A DNA stretch of 47,029 nucleotides from an uncultured Myxococcales bacterium (lineage in GTDB: Bacteria; Desulfobacterota; Binatia; UBA1149; CAITLU01): assembly GCA_964475235.1 (NCBI GenBank), contig CAYYVZ010000001.1, positions 1 to 47,029 of the forward strand, read 5' to 3'. The notes under the pieces are model-generated. The model did not search any database. It saw nothing but the letters and a program-made list of their open reading frames with translations, and was not told the DNA's origin. The translations under genes were made by a program, and so were the position numbers. Numbering within the stretch: position 1 is the first letter of the stretch; the number at the start of each line of letters is the position of its first letter. Positions 28,787-46,721 of this stretch are shown here, piece by piece.

Positions 28787-29830
28787 CTAGTCGCCGCCGG
28801 TCAACGTCACCGCCACCGCGACGTTCACGTTGCGTACGCGGTTGCCCTCGAGATCGGATGCGTCGTCGACGACGACGGTAAAGTTCGCGGGCACCGGAAC
28901 CGGGGTGTCCGGCAGGAAGGAGCACTCGGCGAGCTCCACCGGATCGTCGAATCCTTCGAGCGAAATGAAGCCGAGCTGAAGCTTGCTCGTGGCATCGTTG
29001 GCGTTCGGCGCGAAGAGCACCGAGTCGATGCTGCTCGCGCACTCGACTTCTGCCCCGTCTCCGACGAAGCGTCCGGGCGCCGACGTATAGTTCACCGTCA
29101 GCTGAAGCGCGCCGAGCGGCTCGACCGTCTGGTCGAGCAGGAAGCGGATGGCGATCGGCTCCTGGACGATGGTCGTACTGGTCGTCGTGCCGCTGGTCGA
29201 AGGGGTAGTCGCAACGGTCGTCGACGTGGTCGTGGTCGACGGCGGCCCGCACAGCGGGGAGTGCTGGCAGTTCGGGTCTTCGCAGTCCTCGAGGCCGTTG
29301 CCGTCGTCGTCGACACCGTTGTCGCAGTCCTCGCAGGAGCGCGGGTCCGCGTCCTCGTCGATGCAGAGCGGCGGGCCTCCGTCGCAACCGGCGACGGTGC
29401 ACACACACTGCGCGGTGCTCTCGGAGTTGATGTCCGAGACGTCGACCTCCGTGAACACGCACTGGAACAGGTTCGTGACGGCGGGGATCGTGCACCCGGT
29501 GATCGTCACGCGCAGCGCGTCGCCCGCGCCGAGCTCGGTGAACGTCGCCGTGCAGCCGCTCGTCGAGAGCAGGGCGTCGATCGAGCAGTTGGGTCCGCCG
29601 CTGGAGAGCCGCGCGAGGATCGCATCGGCGTCGGCGAGGTCCACGTTGACGATGACGCTGTTGCAGCTGCCGTCGCCGTTGATGCCGAAGAAGAGACGGA
29701 TCGCATTGCCGCCGCCTCCGCCGTCGCCGCTGCCGCCGCAGTGGGCAAGCGCAGCGGCCAGAGCGAACGCGAACGCACCGTTCGCAACTGTCCGGGCGCC
29801 GCTACGGATCGCGTGAAGCCAGCGAGTCAT
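28787..29830 (-). CDS. Secreted protein or probable lipoprotein: two copies of a beta-rich domain separated by a Cys/Asp-rich metal-binding-like motif and a Thr/Ser linker
   Basis: ATG at 29830. 'AFAFALAAALAHC' followed by the Gly-rich 'GGSGDGGGGG' gives an atypical lipobox (LAHC). 'CIDEDADPRSCEDCDNGVDDDGNGLEDCEDPNC' lies at 29249-29386 and 'PPSTTTTSTTVATTPSTSGTTTSTT' at 29171-29245. The N- and C-terminal domains share 'AIR(L/F)', 'C-x-S-ID', 'L(R/Q)-x5-G..........(Q/E)C-x-F'. Confidence 0.65.
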   Translation of the reverse strand: MTRWLHAIRSGARTVANGAFAFALAAALAHCGGSGDGGGGGNAIRLFFGINGDGSCNSVIVNVDLADADAILARLSSGGPNCSIDALLSTSGCTATFTELGAGDALRVTITGCTIPAVTNLFQCVFTEVDVSDINSESTAQCVCTVAGCDGGPPLCIDEDADPRSCEDCDNGVDDDGNGLEDCEDPNCQHSPLCGPPSTTTTSTTVATTPSTSGTTTSTTIVQEPIAIRFLLDQTVEPLGALQLTVNYTSAPGRFVGDGAEVECASSIDSVLFAPNANDATSKLQLGFISLEGFDDPVELAECSFLPDTPVPVPANFTVVVDDASDLEGNRVRNVNVAVAVTLTGGD

Positions 29831-29970: not shown

Positions 29971-31188
29971 CTACGGGCCCCCGTCCTTCTTCTGCCGGAT
30001 CGCATCCGTGGCGATCCGCTCGACGCGAGCGGCGAGGCGATCCCACGTGTGCAGCCTCGCTCTCTGCCGCGCGCGACGCGCAAGTTTGGCGCCGAGTGTG
30101 GGATCCGTCCGGATCAGCTCGACGTGTTCGGCGAGCCTGCTGGCGCTACCGGGCGGATGGAGCATCGCCGCCTGGCGGTGGGCAAACAGGCGCGGCAGCT
30201 CACCGCTGGAGCTCGCTGCGATCGGAACGCCGGCTGCGGCGTACTCCCAGACCTTCAGCGGCGAGAAGTAGAACGACGGAAGCGCGGGATACGGTGCGAC
30301 TCCGACGTGCATGCGCGCGAGCTGCCCGGCCACGGCCGACGGATCGATCTCGCCGGTGAGCTCGGCGAACGCGCCGAGCTGATGCTCGCTCAGGAAACGT
30401 TCGATCTCCCCACGCAGCGGCCCGTCCCCGACGATCAGCAGGCGATACGACTTCGACGCGCGGTGCAGCTTGCGGAAGGCCCGCAACAGCACGTCGATGC
30501 CGTGCCAGGGCTTGAGGCTGCCGACGAAGCCGACCACGAAAGGGTCGTCCTCCCGCCGCGCCGGGCGCGGCAACGGGGCGATGCGCGAGGTCGCGACGCC
30601 GCACGGTACGAGGCGCACCTTTCGGCGCGATGCTCCGTGAGCACGCGCGTAGTCCGCCAGATGGGCCGCGGTCACCAGCACGCGGTCGCTGCCCGAGAGC
30701 AACGCCGCTTCGATCGCCGCCGCCGCCGGCGCGAGCTCGAGCTCGCGATACTCGCGCTGCTGCTCCACCAGCGGCGCGTTCACCTCGAGAAGATGGGGAA
30801 CGCCGGACCGGCGAGCCCAGCGCAGGCCCGCGATCGACCACAGGGACTGCCGTTCGTAGACGAGGTCCGGCCGCGGCCTCAGCTCCGACAACGCCGTCTC
30901 GAGCGAGAGGTTCCGGAGAAGCGAACGTACCTCCTTCGACTGGCGCGAAGAACCGGCTTCGCCCGCTTTCTGCATTCGCGCCGTCACCTCCGCGAGCGAG
31001 GCGTCGGCCTGCAGGTCGACGATGCGTGCCGGGAACGATCGCGGCGCCGTGCCCGCGTTCGCCGCCAACAGCGTGACGTCGTGGCCGCGCGCCGCGAGCG
31101 CCACGAGCATCTCCCGCACGTGGGTGGAACTGCCGCTGAAGCCGAAGGGGTCGACGCCGCGATCGGCGCAAACGTACGCGATGCGCAT
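29971..31188 (-). CDS. Family 4 glycosyltransferase (GT-B fold)
   Basis: 'MRIAYVCADRGVDPFGFSGSSTHVREMLVALAARGHDV' and the EX7E region 'LKVWEYAAAGVPIAASSSGELPRLF'. It is a paralog of the 34544-35794 gene. An alternative ATG at 31218 would overlap the barrel gene. Confidence 0.8.
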   Translation of the reverse strand: MRIAYVCADRGVDPFGFSGSSTHVREMLVALAARGHDVTLLAANAGTAPRSFPARIVDLQADASLAEVTARMQKAGEAGSSRQSKEVRSLLRNLSLETALSELRPRPDLVYERQSLWSIAGLRWARRSGVPHLLEVNAPLVEQQREYRELELAPAAAAIEAALLSGSDRVLVTAAHLADYARAHGASRRKVRLVPCGVATSRIAPLPRPARREDDPFVVGFVGSLKPWHGIDVLLRAFRKLHRASKSYRLLIVGDGPLRGEIERFLSEHQLGAFAELTGEIDPSAVAGQLARMHVGVAPYPALPSFYFSPLKVWEYAAAGVPIAASSSGELPRLFAHRQAAMLHPPGSASRLAEHVELIRTDPTLGAKLARRARQRARLHTWDRLAARVERIATDAIRQKKDGGP

Positions 31189-31207
31189 TCCCCGCACGGC
31201 CTGCTCT

Positions 31208-32173
31208 TCAGAAGTCATAGGAAAGTCGCAGCGAACCGTCGTTGATGTCGTAGGTACGGTCGGCACGCGTGGAGTCGTTGTCGCGGTAGCGGTAGCGAAG
31301 GCGCAGCATCGTGGAAGGGATCCACGGGACCGGAACGTCGAGTCCCGCTTCGTAGGTATAGGCGTCGTCCTCGCGCCCGAAATTGCTGTTGCCGTCGCCG
31401 CTTTCGTCTTCTTCGTACCCGACGAGGAAGTTGCGCCACAGCTTCTCGAACCGGAAGATCAATCGCACGTCGGCGGGCAGATAGACGTCGAAGCCCGCGA
31501 GCAGCCAGATTTCCTCGCGGTCGAAGTTGGAGCTGATCGCATCGCGCGCCGAAAAGCCGACTCCGCCCCGTGGTGTCAGGTAGGAGGTCAGACGGTAGCG
31601 CAGGCCCGCCTCGACGGCCTCTTCGTAGAAGGATCGCTCCCGAAAGGGCGGGTCGTAGAACTCCGCGTCGAACTCGAGGTTGAGCACCGCCGTCCAGCGC
31701 TTCCTGTCGCCGAACTTCGAACGCAGCTCTGCCACGAGGTTGTGGACGTCGGCGAACGCATCGGCGGTGGCGGCCGGATCGACGCGCAGGTGGTCGGGAG
31801 ACAGCTGATAGCTGACGGTGAGCGACGCGAGGTCCCAGTCGTAGCCGAACGACGGGCCGAACTCGGCGTAGTCGCGGTTGTCGAAGGCGCTGTAAACGCG
31901 CGCTCGCATGAGTCCCCCGATGCGGTGCGGAAGCCAGCCGCGGGGGTGCCGTTGCCACTCGCCTTCGGCTTCGAATGTCGTGTACCAGGCTTCCTCCCGC
32001 CGCGCCTCGTCGGCGCGGACGTTGTCGGTGTAGCCTTCCTCGAGCGATACCGAGCCGTCGAGCCCCGGTTCGACGTCGCGCGCCCACGCGCCCGCCGGCG
32101 AAACGACCAGGGCGGCGGCGAGCGCGAGAGCCGCACGGAACGCTCGAGGAAGCCGGGCGGTGTTTCGCGTCAT
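31208..32173 (-). CDS. Outer-membrane beta-barrel protein, family unknown
   Basis: Signal peptide 'MTRNTARLPRAFRAALALAAALVVSPAGAWA'. Alternating amphipathic strands rich in Y/R/D/G. Terminal 'SLRLSYDF' with a C-terminal Phe typical of BAM substrates. ATGA overlap with the upstream GT stop. Confidence 0.65.
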   Translation of the reverse strand: MTRNTARLPRAFRAALALAAALVVSPAGAWARDVEPGLDGSVSLEEGYTDNVRADEARREEAWYTTFEAEGEWQRHPRGWLPHRIGGLMRARVYSAFDNRDYAEFGPSFGYDWDLASLTVSYQLSPDHLRVDPAATADAFADVHNLVAELRSKFGDRKRWTAVLNLEFDAEFYDPPFRERSFYEEAVEAGLRYRLTSYLTPRGGVGFSARDAISSNFDREEIWLLAGFDVYLPADVRLIFRFEKLWRNFLVGYEEDESGDGNSNFGREDDAYTYEAGLDVPVPWIPSTMLRLRYRYRDNDSTRADRTYDINDGSLRLSYDF

Positions 32174-33378
32174 TGCCGGGCCTCGCTCGCGAGCGAGAGC
32201 TGCTTGCGGACGCGGCGCGCGATTCGCGTGGCTCCCGCAAAATCGATCTCGGGCCGCGCTTGCGGACGCCAGCCGCCCTGTGCGCGCGCGAGCAACTTGC
32301 GGACGGCGGCTTCGAGCGAAGCCGCCGAGACTTCCTCCTGCGGCAGGACGTCGACGAGGCCTAGCCGCGCAAGCGCGTCGGCGCGCATCGTCTGTTCCGC
32401 ACGCGGCTCTGCGCGCGGAACGAGCAGCGCCGGCTTGGCGGCCGAGACGACCTCGCAGACGGTGTTGTACCCCGCCATGCTCACGCTCACGGTCGAGAGT
32501 GCGAGCAGCGCGGGGACGTCGGGGCTGAAGTCGCAGACGAGTACGCGCTCTCCGAGCGGCAGCAGACGGGCACGCAACTCGCGGCGCTCGGCGGCGGGCA
32601 TGTCGGGGCCGAGGAGCACGATCGAATCGATGCCGTCGCGCGCCAGCCCGGCAGCGGCGCCGGCCCACGCGTCCATCAGCGCGTAACCGTCGCCGCCTCC
32701 CCCGCAGCTCACGAGCACGCGCGGCCTTTCGTCGAGCCTCAGCTCGCTGCGCAGCCGGTCCACCTCGGCGTCCGCGCTCGAGCGTACGACGTATCCGCAG
32801 TAGCGCGTGCGGCGTCGCACCGATTCGGGGAAGTCGTAGAGCTCGGGCGGATCGAAGACGGCCTGGCACCCGGCGATCCAGATCTCGTCGTAGAACTCCT
32901 CGAGCACGGCCGCCATCCCCACTTTCTTCCAGTGCTTGACGATGTGATCGGGCTGGTCGAGCACGTCCCGCAGCGTGAGCGCGATGCGCGTCTGCGGCCG
33001 TCGTTCGCGCAGATAACGCAGCGTCGAGAGCAGCTCGCCGCCGACGCCGCGCGGCGCGTTGTCCACGACCAGCAGATGGGGATCGAACGCACGCACGACG
33101 GCGCGAACCAGATTGCGGCGGATGCGCCGCACGCGATCGAAGCTGATGCGAAGATGGCGCGAGCGGTACTCCTCGCGCCCCGACTTCCATACGCCCGGCA
33201 GCTTGACGAAGTCGACGCCCGCCGTTGCCTCGAAGGCGGCCGCCGAATCGAGACCCGTGAGCATCAGCACGGCGACGTCGTCGACGTGACGGGCGAGGTG
33301 GGACGCCAGCGTGAGGCTGCGCCGGAAGTGCCCGAGCCCGAAGGTGTCGTGAGAATAGAAGAGAATGCGCCGCTTCAT
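32170..33378 (-). CDS. GT-B glycosyltransferase (GT1/GT28 MurG-like; 'predicted glycosyl transferase' COG4671-type)
   Basis: 'MKRRILFYSHDTFGLGHFRRSLTLASHL', 'VLVSCGGGGDG', 'SVSMAGYNTVCEVVSAAKPALLVPR'. ATGA overlap at both ends. Confidence 0.7.
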   Translation of the reverse strand: MKRRILFYSHDTFGLGHFRRSLTLASHLARHVDDVAVLMLTGLDSAAAFEATAGVDFVKLPGVWKSGREEYRSRHLRISFDRVRRIRRNLVRAVVRAFDPHLLVVDNAPRGVGGELLSTLRYLRERRPQTRIALTLRDVLDQPDHIVKHWKKVGMAAVLEEFYDEIWIAGCQAVFDPPELYDFPESVRRRTRYCGYVVRSSADAEVDRLRSELRLDERPRVLVSCGGGGDGYALMDAWAGAAAGLARDGIDSIVLLGPDMPAAERRELRARLLPLGERVLVCDFSPDVPALLALSTVSVSMAGYNTVCEVVSAAKPALLVPRAEPRAEQTMRADALARLGLVDVLPQEEVSAASLEAAVRKLLARAQGGWRPQARPEIDFAGATRIARRVRKQLSLASEARQ

Positions 33379-34547
33379 CGAGTGGCCTCCTCGACGAGGG
33401 CGGGCGAAATGCGGCTCCAGCGCAGGTGGAGCCGGTACACGAAGGCGAGCCGCACGAGGCTCGCGCGGCGGTACCAGCGAGTCGCATCGGCGCGCGCCGC
33501 GCGTCCGTAGCCGCTCAGCGCGGCGAGCTCGAGCGCGCGGTGCGCGTCCCGGCGGTCCCACTGCAGGCCGCGCAGGAACAGGTGGGCCAGCAGGTTGCCG
33601 AGGTCGAGCTCACGGTCGCCGGTGCATCCGGTGTCGACGTCGAGCAGCCACAGGTGCGGGCCGTCGAGGAACACCTGCTTGTCGTAGAAGTCGCGGTGGG
33701 CGAATCCGCCCTTCGAAGGGCGCGGCGCCTGCGCTTCGAGCGCGGCGAGTACGGGCAGGGCCGCGCGGGCGAGCGCCGGATCGACGTCCGTCATCCATTG
33801 CGCCCAGGAGCGCAGGAGCTCGAGCTCGTCTGCGCTTCCGTGAACGCGGTCGCGAGGTCCGTCGATCCTCGAGTGGAGCTCGGCGAGCGCCTCGCCGACC
33901 GCGCCGAGCGCGTGCGCATCGGCCGACTCGGCAAGGACTTCGTAAAGGCTGCGCCCGGCGACGGGAGCCACGAGGTCGAGGCCGAGCGACTCGACGCTGC
34001 CGAGCGGCGCCGGGACGCGCATCGCAAGCGGAGACGTCGCCGCCGCGAGATCCTGTTGCAGGCGCCGACGCCGGCCGGGCTCGCGCTCGACGGAGATCTT
34101 GCCGTACGCGAGCGTCTCGCTGCCGCGGCGATAGCGGAACTGGCAACGCATTCCGGCACGATAAGCGGCGACGTCGCAGGCGTCGGCCTTCGCGCCGGCA
34201 ACGGCGCCGTGCGTGATCGACGGGTCGAGGCAGTCGCCGAGCTGGGGCAGGCGGTAGTCGAGCGGAAAGCGAAGCGCGAGAACGTCCTCGGCCACCATCA
34301 CCGCCCCCGATGGGTCTCGACGTGCGATGCGTCGCACGACCTTCTCGCCTTCGGCCGCGCCGACCACGCAGAGGGAGAGCCGCTCGCCGTCGTCCGCATC
34401 TCGATAGCAGACGTTGAGGTATCGGCCGGGTTTGGCCCACACGGACTCGACTTCGAGGCTCGGTGGGCCGGCCCGGCCCGCGAATCCGGCCAGCAGGGCC
34501 GAGGCCGCGCCGCCGTCGAGCAGGCGATGGACGGTTGCCGCGTTCAT
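33375..34547 (-). CDS. Kinase-fold protein (LPS-kinase Kdo/WaaP-like or APH-like phosphotransferase)
   Basis: 390 aa from ATG 34547. Catalytic-loop-like 'FAHRDFYDKQVFL' and metal-binding 'WLLDVDTG'. 'HRD-(C/F)-Y' is reminiscent of WaaP. The 904-aa ORF in the track is an upstream extension. Confidence 0.6.
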   Translation of the reverse strand: MNAATVHRLLDGGAASALLAGFAGRAGPPSLEVESVWAKPGRYLNVCYRDADDGERLSLCVVGAAEGEKVVRRIARRDPSGAVMVAEDVLALRFPLDYRLPQLGDCLDPSITHGAVAGAKADACDVAAYRAGMRCQFRYRRGSETLAYGKISVEREPGRRRRLQQDLAAATSPLAMRVPAPLGSVESLGLDLVAPVAGRSLYEVLAESADAHALGAVGEALAELHSRIDGPRDRVHGSADELELLRSWAQWMTDVDPALARAALPVLAALEAQAPRPSKGGFAHRDFYDKQVFLDGPHLWLLDVDTGCTGDRELDLGNLLAHLFLRGLQWDRRDAHRALELAALSGYGRAARADATRWYRRASLVRLAFVYRLHLRWSRISPALVEEATR

Positions 34548-35794
34548 CGGGCGCGCTTCTTTCCCGCGCCGGCCGTTCGCCGCGCCGTGCGCACGAGCGC
34601 GAGCACGCGTGTCGCGTTGCGTTTCCAGGTGTAGCGACGCACGAGCTCCTGGCGCGCGGTGCGCGACAGCTTCACCGCCAGCTCGGGGCGGCGGCGAAGC
34701 TCCCCGATCGACGCGGCGATCTCGGCGATCGCGCCGGGACGGTGGAGGAGCGCGCTCCGCCGGTGCTTCAGCACCTCGGCGATCTGGCCGACGCGGCTCG
34801 CGACGATCGGAGTCCCGGCCGCCATGTACTCGAAGATCTTGATCGGCGAGAAGTAGTCGGGCGCGTCTTTCGGATAGGGCGCGACGGCGACGTCCATGCG
34901 CGCGAGCAGGGCGGGGACTTCCTCGTGCGCCGCGGCCCCCGTGAACGTGACGGCGTGCGCGAGCCCCCACTCCGCGAAGCGCCGCTGGACGTCCTCGCGC
35001 AGCGGTCCGTCGCCGACGACGAGGAGGCGGTAGCCCTTCCAGCTGCGGTGCAGGCGCCGGAACGCACGGGCGAGGTCGTCGAGCCCGTGCCAGGGCTTGA
35101 GGCTTCCGAGGAATCCGATCGTGAACTCGTCGCGCGCGCGGTCGCGGCCGCGGCGGGACGGCCGAAAGCGCGCCGGATCGGCGGCGTTCGCGACGACGTG
35201 GACCGCGTGCTCGGCGGCGCCGCGCGAGACGGCGTAGGTTCGAAGGGCGGCCGACGGCACGATCACGCGGTCGGCCATGGTCAGCGTGTGGCTCTCGATG
35301 GCGGCTGCGAGCGACTCGTTCTCGAGCGCGCGGTAGCGTTTCTGCTCCGCGGGAAGCGGTGCGTTCATCTCGACGAGGTGGGGCAGCCCGTTGGCGCGCG
35401 CGAAGGCGCCGGCCGAATGACTCCATAGCGAGCAGCGCTCGTAGACAGCGTCGATTCGCCAGGCGGCGTGCAGCTTCTCGAGAGCGCGCGACATGTCGAG
35501 ATTGAAGAGGACGGCCGCCGTCTCGGCCGCCGCAACCGGCGAGACGAGGGTTCCTTCGCCGCGCGACAACGCCTGCCGCGTGCGGCGTGCAGAGCGACTG
35601 CCGCCGACGTCGACGACGTTGGCGGGCGTGCCGCCGCTGCCGTCGGCCACGCGCGCGGCGAGGATCCGCACTTCGGCGCCGCGCTCGCCGAGCGCGCGCA
35701 CCAGCTCGGCGACGTGCAGCGAAGCGCCCTTGTGACCGCCGATCGGCACGCCGCGGTCCGCGCAGACGTAAGCGATGTGGATGCCCCTGGTCAC
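34544..35794 (-). CDS. Family 4 glycosyltransferase
   Basis: GTG start at 35794 (GTGA overlap). 'IHIAYVCADRGVPIGGHKGASLHVAELVRALGERGAEV' and 'IKIFEYMAAGTPIVASRVGQIAEVL'. Confidence 0.8.
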   Translation of the reverse strand: MTRGIHIAYVCADRGVPIGGHKGASLHVAELVRALGERGAEVRILAARVADGSGGTPANVVDVGGSRSARRTRQALSRGEGTLVSPVAAAETAAVLFNLDMSRALEKLHAAWRIDAVYERCSLWSHSAGAFARANGLPHLVEMNAPLPAEQKRYRALENESLAAAIESHTLTMADRVIVPSAALRTYAVSRGAAEHAVHVVANAADPARFRPSRRGRDRARDEFTIGFLGSLKPWHGLDDLARAFRRLHRSWKGYRLLVVGDGPLREDVQRRFAEWGLAHAVTFTGAAAHEEVPALLARMDVAVAPYPKDAPDYFSPIKIFEYMAAGTPIVASRVGQIAEVLKHRRSALLHRPGAIAEIAASIGELRRRPELAVKLSRTARQELVRRYTWKRNATRVLALVRTARRTAGAGKKRAR

Positions 35795-37023
35795 GCCGTC
35801 GCGCGCTCCGTGGGCAGATGGCGCCGGAACATGGCTGCCAGCTCGGCGACGTTGCGACGCAGGTCGAAGTGGGCCTCGGCGCGCCGCCGCCCCGCCCGGC
35901 CCATGGCCTCGGCGCGCGCCGGGTCCGCGAGGATCTGCGCGATGGCACCGGCCAGGCCGCCGATGTCGCCGGGCTCGACGAGCAGCCCGTTTTCACCGTC
36001 GACGACGATCTCGGGAATGCCGGAAAGGCGCGTCGAGACGAGCGGAAGTCCGCAGGCCATTCCTTCGAGCAACGCGGTGGGGAGCGCATCGACGTTGCCG
36101 TCGGAGCCGACGACGCACGGCAGAGCCACCAGCGACGCCTGGCGAAGCCGCTCGGTGACCTGTTCGGTCGATACGGATCCGCAAAGCGTCACGACGTCAC
36201 CGAGGCCCCGCCGGGCAACGAGGTCGCGAAGCGACGACTCGAGGTCGCCGCCGCCGACGATGTCGCAGTGGAACGCGAGGCCGCGGTCGCGCAGCATCGC
36301 GCAGGCCTCGATGAGGACGTCGAAACCCTTCTTCTCGACCAGGCGGCCGATCGAGACGATGCGCGGCAGCTTGCGCGGTACCTCGGCCGGCGGGGGTTGG
36401 TTCGGGGAGAAGCGCTCGAGGTCGACGCCGTTGTAGAGCCGCACGATCCCCGCCGCTTCCGTTTCCTCGCACGCCATGAGCTCGAGCAGGTGGCGCCGGT
36501 TGTAGTCGGTCACCGTGACGACGAAGCGTGCGCGGCGGATCTTCCAGGCGAGCACGTCGCGATCGACGTCGCGGTGATAGATGTCCTTGGCATGGGCCGT
36601 CATGCTGAACCCGATGCCGCCGAGCTGCGCGGCGAGCAACGCGACGTGCCCGGCGCGCGATGCGAAATGGGCGTGCAGGTGTCCGACACCGTGGCGCCCG
36701 GCGAGAGAAGTCAGCGCGAGGCCGAGCCGCACGTACTTGCGCGGGAGGAGCGCGGGACGCTCGGCCTCGGCGATGTCGAGCAGGCGCGCGAGTCGTTCGG
36801 TAGCCTTTCGGACTTCCGCGTCGTCGACGACGGTTTCCTCGACGATCTCGACGGGTGCTGCGAGGTCGCGGAGGATCGCGTGGGTCACCGGAGCCGGGTT
36901 GCGGTGCAGCGAGAACACGACGGGGTGTTCGCCGAGTGCCTCGAGCGCGCGCACCTCGTTGATGACGAACGTCTCGGAAGTGCGTGGGAAGACTTTCGCG
37001 ACGTAAGCGATCCGGTGGCTCAC
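35791..37023 (-). CDS. Family 4 glycosyltransferase
   Basis: GTG at 37023 ('VSHRIAYVAKVFPRTSETFVINEV') overlaps the upstream stop (GTGA). 'IGRLVEKKGFDVLIEA' and 'LLEGMACGLPLVSTRLSGIPEIVVDGENGLLV'. Confidence 0.8.
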   Translation of the reverse strand: MSHRIAYVAKVFPRTSETFVINEVRALEALGEHPVVFSLHRNPAPVTHAILRDLAAPVEIVEETVVDDAEVRKATERLARLLDIAEAERPALLPRKYVRLGLALTSLAGRHGVGHLHAHFASRAGHVALLAAQLGGIGFSMTAHAKDIYHRDVDRDVLAWKIRRARFVVTVTDYNRRHLLELMACEETEAAGIVRLYNGVDLERFSPNQPPPAEVPRKLPRIVSIGRLVEKKGFDVLIEACAMLRDRGLAFHCDIVGGGDLESSLRDLVARRGLGDVVTLCGSVSTEQVTERLRQASLVALPCVVGSDGNVDALPTALLEGMACGLPLVSTRLSGIPEIVVDGENGLLVEPGDIGGLAGAIAQILADPARAEAMGRAGRRRAEAHFDLRRNVAELAAMFRRHLPTERATA

Positions 37024-37487
37024 GGGGTGGCTCCGGGGACAGTTTCCCTCGCCGGCGTGGGTACGGCGAGAGGCGTCGTGGTCTCCGGAGCCGGCGCGTC
37101 CGTGTTCGCGCCGGCCGTCCGCCGAGAGGGATCGGGGACCAGCCGGCACGCATGGTCTTCGCAGACGGCCTTCACGTCGTTGCGGCAGAGGTCGAGCTGG
37201 ATGCACACCGGTCGCGGGCGGCACGCGCTCTTGAGAAACAGCCGAAGCTCGTCGGTGTGCCAGCGGGTGACGGCGCCTTGCGCGCCGCCTTCGGAGCACG
37301 GGCAGCAGCCGATGCGATCGACGATCTTGCAGTCGTCGGCCGTCGCGCACCAGAACGAATCGAAAGGCAGGACGACGGGCTTGGTCGCCGCGGTGCCGTC
37401 GTGGAACGAGACGATTCCGAGGCCGAGCATCCCCGCGGTCAACAGCAGGGTCCCGACGGTGACGACCATGCTGCCACGCGAGGTCAT
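37020..37487 (-). CDS. Hypothetical membrane-anchored Cys-rich protein (155 aa, 10 Cys, Pro/Thr/Ala-rich tail)
   Basis: The ATG at 37487 overlaps the ABC exporter stop (ATGA), and its own stop overlaps the GT4 start (GTGA). TM 'MVVTVGTLLLTAGMLGLGIVSF', then 'WCATADDCKIVDRIGCCPCSEGG...ACRPRPVCIQLDLCRNDVKAVCEDHACRL', then the tail 'TDAPAPETTTPLAVPTPARETVPGATP'. It is hidden in the track inside a 757-aa off-frame ORF. Confidence 0.6.
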   Translation of the reverse strand: MTSRGSMVVTVGTLLLTAGMLGLGIVSFHDGTAATKPVVLPFDSFWCATADDCKIVDRIGCCPCSEGGAQGAVTRWHTDELRLFLKSACRPRPVCIQLDLCRNDVKAVCEDHACRLVPDPSRRTAGANTDAPAPETTTPLAVPTPARETVPGATP

Positions 37488-39403
37488 GCCTTGGCTCCCG
37501 ACGTCGCGGCCGCAAGAACAGGCTGTGCCGCTGCGCCGCTTGCGGGTTCCGCCACCACCTGGAGCGCGGGCGCAGCCGGCGTTCCTTCCTGGATGCGCCA
37601 CGTGTCGCGATACCAGCCGGGCTGCTGGACGAGGTCGTCGTGGCGTCCGTACTGCACGATGCGGCCCTGGTCGAGGACGATGACGCGGCGTGCCTTGCGC
37701 ACTTCGCTCAGGCGGTGGGCGACGCGCAGCGTGGTCTTTCCTGCACTGATCCGGGCCAGCGTGCGGTTGAGGTGCGCGGCGGAAGTCGCGTCGAGGTGAG
37801 CGGTCGGTTCGTCGAGGATCAGGATGGGCGGGTCGTTCACCATCGCGCGTGCGATCGCGATCTTCTGGCGCTGGCCGCCCGACAGCGTGTCGCCGCGTTC
37901 GCCGACTTTGGTCTCGTAGCCGTCTTCGAGCGCGACGATGAAGTCGTGGGCGTCCGCGAGCCTGGCCGCCGCGACGATTTCCTCGTCCGTGGCGTCGGGC
38001 CGGGCGTAGGCGATGTTCTCGCGGATCGTGGTGGCAAACAGGATCGGCTCCTGCAGGACCACGCCGATCTGCTGGCGCAGCGACTCGAGCGTGAACGACG
38101 TGATCTTCTCTCCGTCGATCGTGATCGTCCCCTCGGCGGGATCGAACAGGCGCGGGAGCATCGCGCAGAGCGTGGACTTGCCGGCGCCGTTCGATCCGAC
38201 GATGGCCAGGGTCTGGCCCGGCTTCACCGTGACGCTCACGCCGTCGAGCACGCGCACGCCGGAATGGTAGCTGAAGCCGACGTCGTGGAAGCTCACCCGT
38301 CCCGCGAAGCGCGGCGCCGGCACGGCGTTCTTCGAGACGCGCACGCATTCGCTCACCTCCAGCAGCGAGAAGACGCGTTCGGCACAGACGCGGGCCTTCG
38401 ACGCGCGGCTGGCGACCGTCGAGATGCGGCGCAGCGGCTTGTACATCGCGGCCAGGTAGGCGGTGAAGACGAGCAGATCGCCGGGGGTGAGGACGCCGGA
38501 CATCACGCGCTCGGTTCCGAACCACAGGACGAGGCCTGTCCCGATGGCGATCATGATCTCGGCCGTGCGCTCGAGCGACGCCTCGAGCTTCACGGTGCGC
38601 AGGCCCTGGCGCAGAGATCGCTTGTTGGCTTCGCCGAAGCGCGCCGCCTCGTCGGCTTCGCGCCCGTGCACCTGCACCACGGCGATGGCACCGAGGGTCT
38701 CGCCGACGTGCGCTGCCATGCGACCTTCGCGGCTTCGCTGCTTGCGCACCGCCGTGCGGAGCTCGGCCGAAAGGCGCAGCGTCGAGAGCGCGAGCAACGG
38801 CAGCACCGACAGGCTGATGATCGTCAGTTGCCAGTCCACCCACGCCATGACGACGACCATCGCGACGATGGTCAGTGCCGAGGTCGCGAAGATCACGAGC
38901 GCCTCGACCATCATCTCTCGCATCATCGTGGTATCGGACGTGGTGCGGAGCACGAGGTCGCCGATCCTCTGGCGGCGGTGGAACGTGAGCGCGAGCCGCT
39001 GCAGATGGAGGAAGAGGCGGCGGCGCAACAGGAAGGATACCTCGTGCCCGGCGGACGCGATGAGGTAGCGCTGAAGGTAGCTGAACAACCCCCACAGAAG
39101 ACCGATCGCGAGCAGCAGCACGCACGCGATGCCCGCGATGCCCGAGGCGCCGTAGCCCTTGAGCATCGAGTACGGGAAGGCCCAGCGGATGCGGTCTTCG
39201 GATCCGAGGGCGTAGTCGAAGACCATCTTGATCGGCCACGGGCGCGCGACGACCATCATGACGGTCCCGACGCTGCACGCGAGGGCCAGCCACAGATCCC
39301 GCTGAACGGCATGGAGGAACGGCGCCATGTCGCCGAAGAGGCGACGAAGCGACTGCCAGCGCAGCGAGCGCAGCAGCGGGTTGAGCGCGACTTCCACCTT
39401 CAT
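37484..39403 (-). CDS. ABC exporter, fused transmembrane and ATPase domains (type I exporter, MsbA-like architecture)
   Basis: Six-TM N-terminal half. Walker A 'GSNGAGKSTL', signature 'LSGGQRQKIAIARA', Walker B 'ILILDEPTAHLD'. No C39 peptidase domain. Confidence 0.85.
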   Translation of the reverse strand: MKVEVALNPLLRSLRWQSLRRLFGDMAPFLHAVQRDLWLALACSVGTVMMVVARPWPIKMVFDYALGSEDRIRWAFPYSMLKGYGASGIAGIACVLLLAIGLLWGLFSYLQRYLIASAGHEVSFLLRRRLFLHLQRLALTFHRRQRIGDLVLRTTSDTTMMREMMVEALVIFATSALTIVAMVVVMAWVDWQLTIISLSVLPLLALSTLRLSAELRTAVRKQRSREGRMAAHVGETLGAIAVVQVHGREADEAARFGEANKRSLRQGLRTVKLEASLERTAEIMIAIGTGLVLWFGTERVMSGVLTPGDLLVFTAYLAAMYKPLRRISTVASRASKARVCAERVFSLLEVSECVRVSKNAVPAPRFAGRVSFHDVGFSYHSGVRVLDGVSVTVKPGQTLAIVGSNGAGKSTLCAMLPRLFDPAEGTITIDGEKITSFTLESLRQQIGVVLQEPILFATTIRENIAYARPDATDEEIVAAARLADAHDFIVALEDGYETKVGERGDTLSGGQRQKIAIARAMVNDPPILILDEPTAHLDATSAAHLNRTLARISAGKTTLRVAHRLSEVRKARRVIVLDQGRIVQYGRHDDLVQQPGWYRDTWRIQEGTPAAPALQVVAEPASGAAAQPVLAAATSGAKA

Positions 39404-39506
39404 GTCGATCGTCGTGCGGCGGCGGCCCCCGCGATCGCGCCGGCGGGAGGCCGCAGATCCGCCCGAAGGCGTGCCTCCCGTTGCGATCGCACCCAGGGCG
39501 CCGGGC

Positions 39507-40022
39507 TCAGTCGCCGTTCTGCTTGCGCCGCGAGAAGAGCTTGAGCGTCGCGATGGTATTGGGCGTCGCGCTGGATTTGTCGACCAGGATGCCGGTGCAA
39601 AGGATGCGCGTGCTCGTTCCGAGGATTCGTGCGGCTCCGTTCTTGACGTTTCCGAGGCCGGTGATGGCCGCGTCCTCGTGCAGGCCCACGCTGGTGCCGG
39701 TCGAGATGGTGACGGTGTGCCCCACCGGTAGCGGCAGCGTACCGTTGCCGGAGCCGACGGCGACGTCGTTGAGCGCGTCGCCGCCTTCGGGCGCGAACAC
39801 TTCGAACGCGACGGTCGCGTCGACCGTGTCGAGCGAGGTGCACATGATCGCCGTCTCGATGCCGTTGTTCTTGATCACGCCCGGAACGTGGAACAGCACG
39901 CGCGTCGATTCGGAGGCCGAGATCGACGGGACGGGGCTGTCACCCGGACCGAGCGCGGATGCGCTGGTGACAAACGTGAGGACCACGGCCGCAACCGTGC
40001 TCGGAATCGCTGCTCTTTTCAT
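39507..40022 (-). CDS. Hypothetical secreted protein (171 aa)
   Basis: ATG at 40022 preceded by GGAGAGAGA. Signal peptide 'MKRAAIPSTVAAVVLTFVTSASA'. Beta-rich and G/T/V-rich mature part. It starts 26 nt downstream of the delta-60 gene. Confidence 0.6.
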   Translation of the reverse strand: MKRAAIPSTVAAVVLTFVTSASALGPGDSPVPSISASESTRVLFHVPGVIKNNGIETAIMCTSLDTVDATVAFEVFAPEGGDALNDVAVGSGNGTLPLPVGHTVTISTGTSVGLHEDAAITGLGNVKNGAARILGTSTRILCTGILVDKSSATPNTIATLKLFSRRKQNGD

Positions 40023-40048
40023 CGTCTCTCTCCTCGGTTGTGGTCCGG

Positions 40049-41755: not shown

Positions 41756-41822
41756 GAAAAGCCGTCCTCCGGATGCGCGCGGGAACCTGCCTCGCTCAGT
41801 ATTTCGAAGGGCTGTGGGGGCA

Positions 41823-41838
41823 AGCAATCGCCGTGCCG
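41823..41838 (-). promoter_or_regulatory. Sigma-54 (-24/-12) promoter candidate for the delta-60 gene and the downstream block
   Basis: The minus strand reads CGGCACGGCGATTGCT, compared with the consensus TGGCACG-N4-TTGCW. Only the first T differs, and the GG-N10-GC spacing is exact. It lies about 70-85 nt upstream of the ATG at 41755 and 170 nt downstream of a GAFTGA-containing activator gene. Confidence 0.7.
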
Positions 41839-41969
41839 CTGCAGGTGTCCGGACGGGGACCCGGCGGCTACTCTCCTCATTCGGCAAAACGCCTGCGCGG
41901 CGATCGCCGGGCAGGCCGCTTCGTCCGCGCCGGGCCGGGCCTCGAACTCGGCGGAAGCGCACGACTTTC

Positions 41970-41999
41970 CCGGACCGCGCAGGATCTTGCGCGGTCCGG
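41970..41999 (-). terminator. 12-bp perfect inverted repeat just after the response-regulator stop; terminator and/or activator-binding palindrome
   Basis: CCGGACCGCGCA (41970-41981), spacer GGATCT, then TGCGCGGTCCGG (41988-41999). It lies 5 nt from the stop at 42005 and about 130-160 bp upstream of the sigma-54 -24 element. There is no clear U-tract. Confidence 0.45.
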
Positions 42000-42004
42000 C
42001 CCTT

Positions 42005-43366
42005 TCAGAGGCCGTGTCGCTTGAGCTTGTACCAGAGGTTGCGCTCGCTGATTCCGAGCATTCGCGCCGCCTTCGCCTTGTTCCCTCCGCTGCGCGAGAG
42101 GGCCGTCTCGATCGCCTGGGACTCGGCCCGGGCGACCGCTTCGGCGAGCGACTGCTGCTCGTGCGCGGTAGCGGTGCGGCCGGCCGGGGCCCTTTCCGGA
42201 AGGTCGAGCAGGTGGGCGACCAGGTCGAAGCCCGAACGACCGTCCGACCCGCGAACGGTGAGCCGCTCGCAGACGTTTCGCAGCTCGCGCACGTTGCCCG
42301 GCCACGGATAGGCCTCGAGCAACTCGACGGCGCTGCGTTCGAGCGCGAGCGGCGGCGTTCCCATGCGTGTCGCCGACTCCCCGAGAAAGTGCGCGGCCAG
42401 CAGGGGCACGTCCGTCGCGCGGTCGCGCAGCGGGGGAACCTTCACCTGAAGAACGTTGAGGCGATAGTAGAGGTCCTCGCGGAAGCTGCCGTCGGCGACG
42501 CGCTCCTGCAGGTTGCGGTGGGTGGCCGAGACGATGCGCACGTCGACGCGGATCTGGCGGTTGCTGCCGATCCGCTCGATCACGCCCTCTTCGATGGCGC
42601 GCAGGATCTTCGGCTGGAGCGCGAGAGGCATGTCGCCGATCTCGTCGAGAAACAGCGTGGCGCCCGAGGCGACTTCGAATTTCCCGAGCCGGTTGTCGAG
42701 CGCGCCGGTGAAGGCGCCGCGCACGTGGCCGAACAGCTCGCTCTCGAGAAGGCCGAGCGGGATCGCCGCGCAGTTGACCGGCACGAAGAGCCCGGCGCGG
42801 CGCTCGCTGGCTTCGTGGATCGCGCGGGCCACGAGCTCCTTGCCCGTGCCGGTTTCGCCGACGACGAGCACCGGCGCACGAGACGTGGCAACCTGTCGCA
42901 CCTGCGCGAACAGCTCCTGCATGACGGCGGAGCGGCCCACGAGGTCCGCCAGCGCGTGTTCCTCGTTCTCGCGCAGGTAACGATTCTCGCGTGCCAGCGC
43001 GTCGAGCTCGAAGGCGCGCGTGACGACGATGTCGAGCTCGTCGAGGTCGAAAGGCTTGGTGATGTAGTCGAACGCCCCGCGCCGCATCGCCTCCACGGCC
43101 GAGCCGACGGTTCCGTAGGCCGTCATCACGATCACCGGGATCGGCAGCCCGCGGCGCCGCGTTTCGCCCAGCATCTCGAGCCCGTCGCGGTCCGGCATGC
43201 GCAGGTCGGTCAGCACGAGGTCGATGCCTTCGTCGAGCTTGGGGAGCGCCTCGGCGACGGACGCCGCCGTGAGCACGCGGTTTCCGCGCTGGCCGAGCGA
43301 CGCCTCCAGCAACCGCCGGAACCGCTCTTCGTCGTCCACGACCAGAATGGTTTGCTCACGATTCAC
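42005..43366 (-). CDS. Sigma-54-dependent response regulator (NtrC family: REC, AAA+, Fis-type HTH)
   Basis: REC 'ILVVDDEE..DLVLTDLRMPDRDG..VIVMTAYG'. AAA+ Walker A 'GETGTGKE', sigma-54 contact loop 'GAFTGA', 'LFLDEIGDM'. HTH 'GNKAKAARMLGISERNLWYKLKRHGL'. GTG at 43366 preceded by GGAGGA. Confidence 0.9.
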   Translation of the reverse strand: MNREQTILVVDDEERFRRLLEASLGQRGNRVLTAASVAEALPKLDEGIDLVLTDLRMPDRDGLEMLGETRRRGLPIPVIVMTAYGTVGSAVEAMRRGAFDYITKPFDLDELDIVVTRAFELDALARENRYLRENEEHALADLVGRSAVMQELFAQVRQVATSRAPVLVVGETGTGKELVARAIHEASERRAGLFVPVNCAAIPLGLLESELFGHVRGAFTGALDNRLGKFEVASGATLFLDEIGDMPLALQPKILRAIEEGVIERIGSNRQIRVDVRIVSATHRNLQERVADGSFREDLYYRLNVLQVKVPPLRDRATDVPLLAAHFLGESATRMGTPPLALERSAVELLEAYPWPGNVRELRNVCERLTVRGSDGRSGFDLVAHLLDLPERAPAGRTATAHEQQSLAEAVARAESQAIETALSRSGGNKAKAARMLGISERNLWYKLKRHGL

Positions 43367-45221
43367 TTGCTTCCTCCGCTCCGGCCGCGACGGGCAGGGT
43401 GACGACGAGCTTGGCTCCTCCGCCCTGGCGGTTGCGTGCGAGAACCTCGCCGCCGTGAGCACGAACGATGCGGCGCACGATCGCGAGGCCGAGTCCGATA
43501 CCACCGTCGCGCTCGCTCGTGAACGGCTCGAAGAGGCGCGCGAGCACGGCCGCCGGGATCCCGGCGCCGCGGTCGCGCACGACGAGGGCGGCGAGCGGGC
43601 CTCGCGCCTCGATCGTGAGGCTGACCTCGCCGCCGCGCGGGCTGGCCTGCAGCGCGTTCATCAGCAGGTTGAGGCAGACCTGGTGGATCTGGTCGGCGTC
43701 GCAGGGCACGACGACCTTCCCGTCCGGTTCGCGGACCGTGACGGTGACGCCGCGATTGCCCGCTTCCGTCGACAGCAGGCTCGCCGCGCGTCGCGCCACC
43801 GCGGCCAGGTCCACGGCCGTCTTCATCGGCGGAACCGGCTTTACGAACTCGAGCAGCTCGGTCACGACCTTGGCGAGGCGGTCGGATTCCTCGCGGATGA
43901 AGACGGCCCATTCGCCCGCCTCGCGGTCGCCCGTGCTGTCCATGCGGCGCTCGAGCAGCTGCGCCGAGCTGCGGATGATGCCGAGCGGCGTGCGGAACTC
44001 GTGCGCCATGCCGGCGGCCATCTCGCCGAGAAACGCGAGCTTGGAGGTCCTCACCATCTCTTCGTTCGCGGTCGCCACGGCGGTCACCATCTGCTGGAAC
44101 GCGCGCGCGAGCTCGCCGACTTCGTCGTCGGAGCGCGGAGACGGCACGTCCTCCAGATCTCCGCTGCGCGCGATGCGCGCCGCTACCAGCGTCAGGTCCT
44201 TGATCGGCCGCGAGAGCCGGCTCGCGAGCCACGCTGCCGCGAGCAGGCCGAACGCGACGAGTCCCATCCCCGTCACGAGCACGCGATCTCGCGCGGCCGT
44301 GACCGGGGCCAGCGCGAGATCCTTGGGAACGCTCGCGACGAGGTGCCAGCCCGGCGTCGGCAGCATTCCGCGGCTGCCGATCGGGACCTCGGCCAGGATG
44401 AAGGAGCGACCGCCTTCATCGCTACCTTCGCGCAACAGCGGCGGTGCACCGGGGGGAAACTGGTTGGGACTGTCGCCCCGCTCGATTCGCCAGTCGGCGA
44501 TGTGCCGGATGTCGAGCGGCGTATCGCGGCCCGCGAGCAGCCGGTCTTCGCCGTCGAGCAGGCGCAGCTCGACGTGGCTGTGACCCGGCTTGGAGACGAC
44601 GATTCGATCGAGCACCTCGCGGTCGAGCATCGCCACGAGAGTGCCGATCGCGGGGCCCTGGCCGGTGGGATCAGGGATCGGGGAGGCCAGCCTCACGAAG
44701 TGGGCCCGGTACTGCTCCGACCATTCGAGGGTCGGCTCGGGATCGGAATACCCGTCCGACGGGGAAGCGACGGGCGTGTCGGCGAGGTCCCGGCCGAGGT
44801 CGCGAGCGTCGCTCGAGGCCACGCACACTCCCTCGCGGTCGAGCGCGACGACGGCGAGGTAGACGCCGTAGTCGCGATGAACCGCCGCGAGGAAGCGTCC
44901 GATCGACTGGCCGGCGTCGCGCGTCGCGACGTCGCCCATGATCGCGAGCCGCGCCCACGTGCGCACGTTGAGGTAGTGCGCGGTCAGCATTTCCTCCAGC
45001 CCGCCCTTCACGTTGATGGCGTCGTCGGCGAGCTGCTCGCGAATCGACGGAAGCAGCGCGTCGCGCGCGGTCGCGAAGGCGACGTAGCCATAGATCAGCG
45101 TGTAGGCGACGAGCAGGACGGCCGACCCGACCAGGAGCTTCGCACGGATCGGCATTGCCGGCCCGCTCGGCGCGGGATTCTGTCGCTTCGACGTTGCGTC
45201 GCTGAGGGAATTCTTCGCCAT
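43356..45221 (-). CDS. Sensor histidine kinase (TM, roughly 270-aa extracytoplasmic domain, TM, HAMP, HisKA, HATPase)
   Basis: TM1 'AKLLVGSAVLLVAYTLIYGYVAFA', TM2 'VLVTGMGLVAFGLLAAAWLA', HAMP 'RPIKDLTLVAARIARSGDL', H-box 'MAHEFRTPLGII', N/G boxes 'LLMNALQAS', 'DRGAGIP', 'GIGLGLAI'. The start may be ATG 45155. Confidence 0.85.
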   Translation of the reverse strand: MAKNSLSDATSKRQNPAPSGPAMPIRAKLLVGSAVLLVAYTLIYGYVAFATARDALLPSIREQLADDAINVKGGLEEMLTAHYLNVRTWARLAIMGDVATRDAGQSIGRFLAAVHRDYGVYLAVVALDREGVCVASSDARDLGRDLADTPVASPSDGYSDPEPTLEWSEQYRAHFVRLASPIPDPTGQGPAIGTLVAMLDREVLDRIVVSKPGHSHVELRLLDGEDRLLAGRDTPLDIRHIADWRIERGDSPNQFPPGAPPLLREGSDEGGRSFILAEVPIGSRGMLPTPGWHLVASVPKDLALAPVTAARDRVLVTGMGLVAFGLLAAAWLASRLSRPIKDLTLVAARIARSGDLEDVPSPRSDDEVGELARAFQQMVTAVATANEEMVRTSKLAFLGEMAAGMAHEFRTPLGIIRSSAQLLERRMDSTGDREAGEWAVFIREESDRLAKVVTELLEFVKPVPPMKTAVDLAAVARRAASLLSTEAGNRGVTVTVREPDGKVVVPCDADQIHQVCLNLLMNALQASPRGGEVSLTIEARGPLAALVVRDRGAGIPAAVLARLFEPFTSERDGGIGLGLAIVRRIVRAHGGEVLARNRQGGGAKLVVTLPVAAGAEEASES

Positions 45222-45494
45222 CGTCGCGTCGCTGCTCCGACTCTAGCCCTGTCGGTGTCCTGTGCCGAGTGGTCCACGTGCCCGCCGTCCGCGTGCAGTC
45301 CTGCCCGGCGCGACGCCGTCCGCTCGTTCGGTCCGACGAGAGAGCGGCGTCACGCTCGCGACCGTCCGCGCCCGCGCGGGCTGCCGGAGCCGCTGGCAAC
45401 ACGTAGGCCGACCTGAAATGTAGTGGCGCGAACGTTCCGGCGGCGAGCCGCAGGACACAACCGCAGCCCGCCGGCGTTCGAGGAGAGGTTACGA

Positions 45495-46721
45495 ATGAGC
45501 ATTTCGAAGAGGCTTTCCGGGTTGTCGGTCGGGTTCGTTGCGCTGGCGGTCCTTGCCTCCGAGCCGGCGTACGCCGGCACCGTCAACGTATCCGCCAACG
45601 GTGCCGACAGCGGCACCTGCGGCTCGTCCGGCGATCCCTGCGCAACCATCGCGCAAGCCGTCACGAACGCTGCCGCCGGCGACACGATCGCGATCGCGCC
45701 CGGCGCGTACGCGGGAACGACCGTCGCCAAATCCGTGTCTATCGTGTCGAGCGCCGGCACGGGCACGGCCGTGATCACGAGCACTCTCGACCTCACCGCG
45801 AGCGGCATCGAAGCCGGCAAGAAGGGAAAAGGGCTGAGTTTCAGCGTCCCTGGTACTGCCGTCACGATCTCGGCGGATGAGGTCCTCGTGCGCGGCAACC
45901 GCTTCTCGGACGGCGCGACCGGCGTCGAGGTCAATGTCTCGAACGGGGCCGTCATTCGCGAAAACAGCTTCGACAACCTGACCACCGGCATCTCGGTGGT
46001 CAGCGGGGTGGGAACCCTGGTGCGCGGAAACGAGTTCGGATACTCGGGCACGACGGCGGTGTCTCTCGGCGCTACGAGCGTGGCCGCCGTCGTTCGCGAG
46101 AATCGAACGCACGGACCGTCCGGCGCCGGATTCGAGATCTCCGGACAGGATCACGTCTTCCTCCGCAACCAGGTGCACGGAAGCCCCGCCGGTGGATTCG
46201 TCTCGGTCGGTACTCCCACCGGAGTGACGCTGACGGAGAACATCGTCGTCAGCTCGGGGAGCCCCGCATTCTTCATTACTACGGGTAGCGGCTGGGTGCT
46301 GACGCGGAACGCGGCCGTCAACAACGGCTCTCCGGGGATCTATCTGACGAACGCAATGCCGAACGTCCTGACCGACAATCTCGCCATCGGATCCGGCTCG
46401 TACGGGATCCTCATCGCGGGCGGCAACGACCACGTGCTCACCGGCAACTCGGCGATCAACAACAGCGGCCAGGGCTTGCTGCTGGGATCGGTAGGGACGG
46501 GTGTGGTCGTCACCGGCGGGAACCTCTACGGAAACGGCTCCGGCAATTGCGGGCTCGAGAACTCGTCCGCGAGCGCCGTGACCACGAGCGACGTCTATTG
46601 GGGAGCCCCGGCGGGACCCGGGGCGGATCCGGCCGACGAGGTCTGCGGCAACATCGCCGGCGTCGTCATCGGATCGCCGGCGGATTCGCCGGCGAAGATG
46701 AAGGGGCCGGGAATCAAGTAG
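45495..46721 (+). CDS. Secreted right-handed parallel beta-helix repeat protein (NosD/pectate-lyase-fold-like)
   Basis: ATG at 45495 preceded by AGGAGAGG. Signal peptide 'MSISKRLSGLSVGFVALAVLASEPAYA'. 'GDPCATIAQAV..AAAGDTIAIAPGAY', then about 22-residue coils '...(L/V)-x-x-N-x-(I/A/F)-x-x-(S/N)...G(I/F)'. Confidence 0.7.
   Translation: MSISKRLSGLSVGFVALAVLASEPAYAGTVNVSANGADSGTCGSSGDPCATIAQAVTNAAAGDTIAIAPGAYAGTTVAKSVSIVSSAGTGTAVITSTLDLTASGIEAGKKGKGLSFSVPGTAVTISADEVLVRGNRFSDGATGVEVNVSNGAVIRENSFDNLTTGISVVSGVGTLVRGNEFGYSGTTAVSLGATSVAAVVRENRTHGPSGAGFEISGQDHVFLRNQVHGSPAGGFVSVGTPTGVTLTENIVVSSGSPAFFITTGSGWVLTRNAAVNNGSPGIYLTNAMPNVLTDNLAIGSGSYGILIAGGNDHVLTGNSAINNSGQGLLLGSVGTGVVVTGGNLYGNGSGNCGLENSSASAVTTSDVYWGAPAGPGADPADEVCGNIAGVVIGSPADSPAKMKGPGIK

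Follow-up and report, generated by a model that had tools for sequence, protein, structure and literature searches.

Does a two-component system control the cell-surface genes that follow it on the same strand, and does it do so through the short spacer that separates them? This question is raised by positions 41756-42004 of the window, a stretch of 47,029 nt that makes up the entire contig C1 of a metagenome-assembled genome (G000; 5.13 Mb, 636 contigs, 67% G+C) whose closest public relatives carry the labels uncultured Myxococcales, Deltaproteobacteria and Candidatus Binatia. A sequence-only reading had proposed that the spacer holds a near-consensus sigma-54 promoter, and had left undecided whether a palindrome further upstream is the enhancer of this promoter or the terminator of the two-component operon.

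The locus and its regulators

Genes were mapped with a codon-usage log-odds caller trained on G000 (4,263 genes, 86% coding density), and the local map was cross-checked by a GC-phase plot (Table 1). In agreement with the sequence-only reading, every gene from 41755 down to 28787 lies on the minus strand of this map, with gaps of 26, 103, 19 and 140 nt. The glycan assembly/export operon reads, in order, ABC exporter, small Cys-rich protein, GT4, GT4, a 390-aa protein without a family, a GT28-like protein, an outer-membrane barrel and GT4; the exporter is followed by a chain of genes with 4-nt overlaps that reaches 31208.

Table 1. Features of the locus and of the related loci used for comparison
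Feature	Coordinates	Strand	Basis or remark
Sensor histidine kinase gene	43356..45155	-	599 aa: N-terminal TM, periplasmic dCache-like region, HAMP, HisKA, HATPase_c
NtrC-family sigma-54 activator (bEBP) gene	42005..43366	-	453 aa: REC, AAA+, C-terminal Fis-type HTH
Palindrome, 30 bp	41970..41999	.	Probable enhancer (UAS), possibly also terminator hairpin of the two-component operon
Half-site CCGCGCAGG, tentative	41892..41900	-	Seen by eye; 9-nt block common to the G003 spacer
Sigma-54 promoter CGGCACG-GCGA-TTGCT	41823..41838	-	Motif, spacer controls, core matrix, G003 conservation
Predicted transcription start, ~41812	41810..41814	-	From standard sigma-54 promoter geometry
Delta-60/DUF5122 secreted protein gene, 568 aa	40049..41755	-	Pfam, TIGR02608, G003 ortholog
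Secreted protein gene, 171 aa, without family	39507..40022	-	Gene call; G003 ortholog
Glycan assembly/export operon, eight genes	29971..39403	-	Pfam; 4-nt start/stop overlaps
ABC exporter gene	37484-39403	-	First gene of the glycan operon
GT4 gene	29971-31188	-	Last gene of the glycan operon
347-aa gene, without family	28787..29830	-	Last same-strand gene; gene call
Sigma-54 promoters on distant contigs	L113:3000-3015, L114:2831-2846		After a cytochrome P450-like gene; leader ~190 nt
Tandem dyads and sigma-54 promoter, genus g2	L295:4006-4123 (G011), L296:3085-3200 (G006)		Extra periplasmic-binding-like gene in front of the kinase-activator operon

Directly upstream of the spacer and on the same strand lie, as had been described, a histidine kinase and a GAFTGA-bearing NtrC-type activator, the kinase gene overlapping the start of the activator gene by 11 nt. 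We found that the kinase matches the HAMP, HisKA and HATPase_c families of Pfam and, weakly, dCache; its best NCBIfam matches are AtoS/ZraS, below cut-offs. The activator matches Sigma54_activat (PF00158, 4e-70), Response_reg (PF00072) and HTH_8 (PF02954), and its translation contains the Walker A motif GETGTGK (residue 170), GAFTGA (217) and DEIG (241). It therefore has what defines an NtrC-family bEBP, namely a REC domain, an AAA+ domain with GAFTGA and a C-terminal HTH. By sequence it is nearest to AtoC, NtrC, PrsR and ZraR, and since it scores below each of the NCBIfam equivalog cut-offs (AtoC 472 against 714, NtrC 443 against 558.6, ZraR 369 against 760 and PrsR 397 against 502.6 bits), it is not an ortholog of any of these; judged from these scores, we take it to be an NtrC-family member that is the ortholog of no named regulator.

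The proposal of a sigma-54 promoter presupposes an rpoN gene, and G000 contains one that is intact (PF04552, 208 bits, on contig C8; a 498-aa ORF with the RpoN box ARRTVAKYR), together with about 12 full sigma-54 activators. Orthologs of the activator are present in 15 related genomes at 55-76% identity, with paralogs clearly apart at 50% or less. A wider search for related loci with the activator as query returned only generic paralogs from many phyla.

A probable sigma-54 promoter before the surface-protein gene

Sigma-54 (-24/-12) promoters are marked by two invariant doublets, GG and GC, with exactly 10 nt between them, and transcription starts about 12 nt past the GC. At 41838-41823 on the minus strand, CGGCACGGCGATTGCT matches TGGCACG-N4-TTGCW at 11 of the 12 specified positions, the first T being the one exception, just as first reported; its GG (41837/41836) and GC (41825/41824) give the exact GG-N10-GC spacing. 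The C that replaces the first T is also found in three other intergenic sites of G000. The element is non-coding, correctly oriented and less than 300 nt from a start codon, and codon periodicity is absent from the 41756-42004 spacer (checked across 41700-41940). Its -12 C lies 69 nt from the ATG (41755) of the delta-60 gene, where about 70 had been estimated, and a GGAGGA Shine-Dalgarno sequence at 41770-41765 stands ahead of this ATG. The predicted transcription start would fall 12 nt past the -12 C, leaving a leader of about 57 nt. The spacer contains no sigma-70-like promoter and no U-tract terminator, and no Rfam family was found in 39300-45600, which includes the spacer and the predicted leader.

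We examined how often a site of this quality arises in the genome. GGCACG-N4-TTGCW has nine intergenic matches in G000 and none in coding sequence, where the sequence-only reading had seen frequent matches as the danger in so GC-rich a genome. Controls with the wrong spacer (N2, N3, N5-N8) gave 0-2 intergenic and 3-7 coding matches each, with means over the six controls of 0.8 and 5.2, so that fewer than one of the nine intergenic matches is expected by chance. When up to one mismatch to TGGCACG-N4-TTGCW is allowed, 31 of the 38 matches lie in intergenic DNA, which makes up 14% of the genome. Furthermore, a comparable intergenic site lies within 3 kb of 7 of the 12 activator genes, at a chance rate of about 0.05 each.

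A leave-one-out matrix that includes the flanks (28 columns from 29 sites, and noisy) puts the site no higher than 47th, among matches of which about half are coding; because of this noise we relied on the spacer controls instead. With a 16-column core matrix the site scores 16.3, a threshold reached by 29 intergenic and 5 coding matches genome-wide, in a comparison biased by the training sites being themselves intergenic. Taken together with the adjoining regulators, the element is very probably a genuine sigma-54 promoter that is switched on by the neighbouring kinase and activator and drives the surface-protein gene.

As a separate observation, the correctly spaced GGCACG-N4-TTGCW is missing from all 4.41 Mb of coding DNA, in which the wrong-spacer versions each occur 3-7 times. 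Selection that keeps stray sigma-54 binding sites out of genes may account for this absence. A candidate second sigma-54 element at 45394-45408 (TGGCAACACGTAGGC) was rejected: it scores below 5 with the G000 matrix, the spacer that holds it has no dyad with fewer than two mismatches, and it is probably not a promoter.

Conservation in related genomes

The locus is syntenic in G003, a genome of the same genus, from the kinase and activator through the spacer, the delta-60 protein (58-64% identical), the 171-aa protein and the ABC exporter along the glycosyltransferase chain to the last glycosyltransferase. The spacers of six orthologous loci have diverged too far for a useful direct alignment, and we used exact-block and window comparisons instead. 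The G000 and G003 spacers cannot be aligned overall and have only two islands in common, the promoter and the palindrome. The palindrome island is a 23-nt exact match, the longest in 500 shuffles being 15 nt. With the palindrome masked, the best 20-mer window is the promoter island (AGCGGCACGGCGATTGCTTG against CGCGGCACGCCGATTGCTTG, 18/20), a value reached in 1 of 300 shuffles; the promoter itself is kept in G003 as CGGCACGCCGATTGCTTG.

Outside this pair the arrangement varies. In G005, CGGCACGCGCCTTGCG lies downstream of the activator ortholog and before an unrelated 325-aa gene, with degenerate dyad copies upstream. G004 has the closest activator ortholog (76%) and neither promoter nor dyad within about 12 kb; the genes past its activator are convergent. 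In genus g2, a sigma-54 promoter stands ahead of the orthologous two-component operon (TGGCATGGCCGTTGCT in G011, TGGCGCGAGACTTGCT in G006), preceded by tandem dyads 20-21 nt apart (GCGCAAGATCCTGCGG and GTGCAAGTGTTTGCGC in G011; weaker in G006). This arrangement suggests positive autoregulation of the two-component operon in the sister genus. A metagenome scan for GCGGCACGNCGATTGCTTG yielded 55 unrelated loci, none with a delta-60 homolog or the palindrome; at one of them a distant paralog of the activator (39% identity) lies about 8 kb off.

The palindrome upstream of the promoter

The palindrome was described correctly at the outset: it has perfect 12-bp arms, CCGGACCGCGCA and TGCGCGGTCCGG, at 41999-41988 and 41981-41970 around a 6-nt centre. 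It begins 5 nt past the TGA of the activator gene (42007-42005). Its conserved core, CCGCGCA-AGATCC-TGCGCGG at 41975-41994, has its centre at 41984.5, placing it 148.5 nt upstream of the -24 G. As RNA, the palindrome would fold into a hairpin of about -30 kcal/mol (z = -2.9) with a perfect 12-bp stem. No U-tract lies behind this hairpin, the tail being GGAAAGUCGUGCG, and a terminator scan of 39300-45600 found none.

Perfect GCGCA-N6-TGCGC dyads are scarce, with only 4 in the 550 kb of intergenic DNA of G000, and they occur at only 2 of its 31 candidate sigma-54 promoters; a 260-nt stretch of intergenic DNA has one by chance at a rate of 0.002 without mismatches and of 0.05 with one. We found that all five promoters linked to the activator orthogroup, in three gene contexts, carry a dyad with at most one mismatch (mismatches: G000, 0; G003, 0; G005, 1; G011, 1 and 1; G006, 2 and 1). 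The distance from dyad centre to the -24 G is 148.5 nt in G000, 161.5 in G003, 183.5 in G005, about 95.5 in G011 and about 75 in G006, the last two having been worked by hand and becoming 93 and 72/73 nt if measured from the start of the 16-mer promoter. This spacing fits the UAS range, about 70-200 bp upstream of -24. The 20-mer core has 33 exact copies across one genome per species of about 185,000 species, and a sigma-54-like site lies within 350 nt of the G003 copy only. In the G000 spacer, the tentative half-site CCGCGCAGG is identical to the left half of the dyad as it stands in G003 and has no right half-site beside it, a weak resemblance. This distribution of the dyad suggests that the palindrome is probably a binding site of the activator, and the hairpin may in addition stop read-through from the activator gene.

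Broader pattern searches were uninformative: with two mismatches allowed, matches to the palindrome in 13 related genomes were swamped by coding sequence, and in G006 and G011 the matches to GCGCA-N6-TGCGC that lie upstream of the kinase proved to be part of a coding gene. G000 also has a REP-like family of perfect 20-30-bp palindromes built on CGGGGACGGATCCCGATT, placed just after genes (contigs C263, C181, C34, C105, C391, C258, C59, C42, C14 and others) and unrelated in sequence to the palindrome at 41970-41999.

Other copies of the dyad in the genome

One further perfect dyad, CGCGCAAATCCTTGCGCG, lies in a divergent spacer on contig C62 (7936-8131; locus L298), 170 nt upstream of a strong sigma-54 promoter, TGGCACGCGCCTTGCG. 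This promoter is followed by an operon with genes for a membrane protein, a ferredoxin/FAD oxidoreductase and a multihaem cytochrome c, and the same activator could have its second target here. On a more speculative note, which we think unlikely to hold as a whole, the dyad would define a small regulon of this one activator, made up of the C1 surface/glycan-export cluster and the C62 operon, while the module of the sister genus would instead control its own two-component operon. If true, an external and perhaps redox-related signal would make Binatia-like bacteria remodel their cell surface and, along with it, their extracytoplasmic electron-transfer machinery. In G011, both the sigma-54 site and the dyad are missing from the ortholog of the C62 operon, and a two-operon regulon is therefore unsupported by conservation.

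On contig C180 (655-765), the palindrome recurs in a second perfect copy, CGCGCAGGATCCTGCGCGGTCC, past the stop codon of an HNH-like gene. About 80 nt further on is TGGCACG-N8-TTGCA, with a spacer 4 nt too long, before an AAA ATPase gene. This arrangement may be a decayed module or a coincidence.

Genes behind the promoter

The first gene encodes a protein with DUF5122 beta-propeller repeats (3.7e-41) and DUF4215 in Pfam, with TIGR02608 delta_60_rpt (2.4e-77) and with a Cys-rich acidic repeat; its tail is dockerin-like at a sub-threshold score (Dockerin_1, 20.0 bits against a cut-off of 22.9). The 171-aa gene 26 nt further on has no Pfam or NCBIfam match, and its homologs precede the ABC gene in other Binatia-like contigs. 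No Pfam match was found for the 347-aa protein at the far end, and it is uncertain whether its gene, beyond the 140-nt gap, belongs to the transcription unit.

The Cys-rich repeat and dockerin-like tail (40049-40440, the C-terminal ~130 aa) recur in 17 of 17 relatives searched, where dozens of ORFs per genome carry them and are otherwise different, and look like a lineage-wide surface-anchoring or sorting module.

Alternative explanations

That the promoter motif arose by chance in non-coding DNA of high GC content, and that no sigma-54 transcription starts there, is very improbable. It is true that its first consensus base is wrong, that by our own arithmetic base composition alone predicts about seven such matches per genome, and that the flank-inclusive matrix puts it where half the matches are coding. 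However, the nine intergenic matches compare with fewer than one predicted by the wrong-spacer controls, the orientation and start-codon distance are correct, an activator gene adjoins the site as at six other sites, and the site is kept in G003 inside an otherwise diverged spacer. Easier to credit, and still unlikely, is that the promoter is real and the palindrome only the intrinsic terminator of the kinase-activator operon, with the enhancer lying elsewhere or another of the roughly 12 activators serving the promoter. A terminator role is a fair prior, because the strong hairpin starts 5 nt past a stop codon and perfect hairpins of at least 12 bp stand just downstream of 4.9% of G000 genes; the C180 and G011 dyads likewise come after stop codons, and U-tract terminators seem generally missing from the region. 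Against a terminator and nothing else, the U-tract is absent, and the 6-nt "loop" is conserved and nearly palindromic (RGATCY), so that the symmetry runs through the centre as in protein-binding sites. Furthermore, the G003 element lies 79 nt past the stop codon and behind another hairpin, the C62 copy sits in a divergent spacer with nothing there to terminate, the G005 and G006 versions make poor hairpins and keep their half-sites, and the dyad tracks the orthologous activator through three gene contexts. On the choice that the sequence-only reading left open, the comparison of genomes speaks for an enhancer, which may also act as a terminator.

How far transcription from this promoter extends is less clear-cut. 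We lean towards read-through into the ABC exporter/glycosyltransferase operon, which is plausible because the 26-nt and 103-nt gaps have no sigma-54-like or sigma-70-like site, because the fold of the 103-nt gap (39404-39506) resembles that of shuffled sequence, because the equivalent junction in G003 is only 30 nt, and because of two distant contigs, L113 (UBP10) and L114 (Binatia). In these a sigma-54 promoter (TGGCACGAGAGTTGCA and TGGCATAGGAGTTGCA, respectively) directly precedes the 171-aa gene and the ABC operon, without the delta-60 gene. Alternatively, the promoter drives only the delta-60 and 171-aa genes and the glycan operon is transcribed from a separate promoter, not recognised as such, inside the 103-nt gap or ahead of it; we judge this the less probable arrangement by a modest amount. 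In its favour, the gap folds into a long GC-rich hairpin and most related operons have no delta-60 gene; moreover, in G011 the glycan operon lacks a sigma-54 site and has no activator nearby, and sigma-54 control of this operon is therefore lineage-specific. The hairpin, however, is no better than those of shuffles (z = -0.01), and the bare gap, the short G003 junction and the placement of the L113 and L114 promoters all tell against a separate start, leaving read-through as the preferred reading.

Proposed mechanism

Starting from the motif with its rarity and conservation, the set of protein parts and the finding that the dyad accompanies activator orthologs, and drawing on established knowledge of the family for binding, start site, signal and transcript extent, we propose the following scheme. 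The membrane kinase would sense a signal outside the cytoplasm and phosphorylate the receiver domain of the NtrC-type activator, which would then assemble on the dyad CCGCGCA-N6-TGCGCGG, whose centre lies about 148 nt upstream of -24. Looping of the DNA would bring the GAFTGA loop of the activator into contact with promoter-bound sigma-54 holoenzyme, and ATP hydrolysis would open the promoter. Transcription from about 41812 would run through the delta-60 and 171-aa genes and probably into the ABC-exporter/glycosyltransferase operon. For the scheme as a whole, that is, a functional sigma-54 promoter, a cis-encoded activator acting on the dyad and transcription of the surface genes, we estimate a probability of roughly three in four.

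An uncultured lineage thereby gains a regulatory annotation consisting of a promoter, a likely start, a likely activator and a candidate motif (CCGCGCA-RGATCY-TGCGCGG), and the surface-protein and glycan-export cluster so annotated is conserved and previously uncharacterised. The pair of motifs could be used in reporter assays, toward defining the signal that induces the cluster.

Comparison with known systems

The kinase and regulator have the domain architecture of AtoSC, ZraSR and NtrBC, which also provide the best NCBIfam matches, whereas the targets here are unrelated to acetoacetate, zinc or nitrogen metabolism. PrsK/PrsR (TIGR02915) is the sigma-54-dependent two-component pair of PEP-CTERM/exosortase systems and is tied to exopolysaccharide and surface-protein loci. 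Our activator resembles PrsR at 397 bits against TIGR02915, below the cut-off of 502.6, and at its C-terminus our surface protein has a dockerin-like, Cys-rich module instead.

In function, the nearest counterpart is SypG of Vibrio fischeri, which activates the syp sigma-54 promoters via short sites about 60-175 bp upstream (PMC10162802; PMC12369376). In both cases a two-component NtrC-type activator is encoded in or beside a polysaccharide synthesis and export cluster; the likeness is one of architecture. The dyad here is GCGCA-N6-TGCGC, whereas the reported SypG motif is TTCTCANNNTGMDWN; there is one promoter here and several in syp, and the first gene here encodes a delta-60 repeat surface protein. 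With its TGC-containing half-sites, the dyad also resembles upstream sites of the NtrC/LuxO style, the LuxO site being TTGCAWWWTGCAA (quoted in PMC10162802).

More generally, Francke et al. [quoted passage not shown] To judge from that part, the present locus is a further example from a Binatia-like lineage apparently outside the survey, and it fits the established picture of sigma-54 and the bacterial exterior while leaving that picture unchanged (PMC3162934). It is a classic arrangement of a cis-encoded two-component activator, an enhancer and a sigma-54 promoter at cell-surface genes, and as such a known switch, not a new one.
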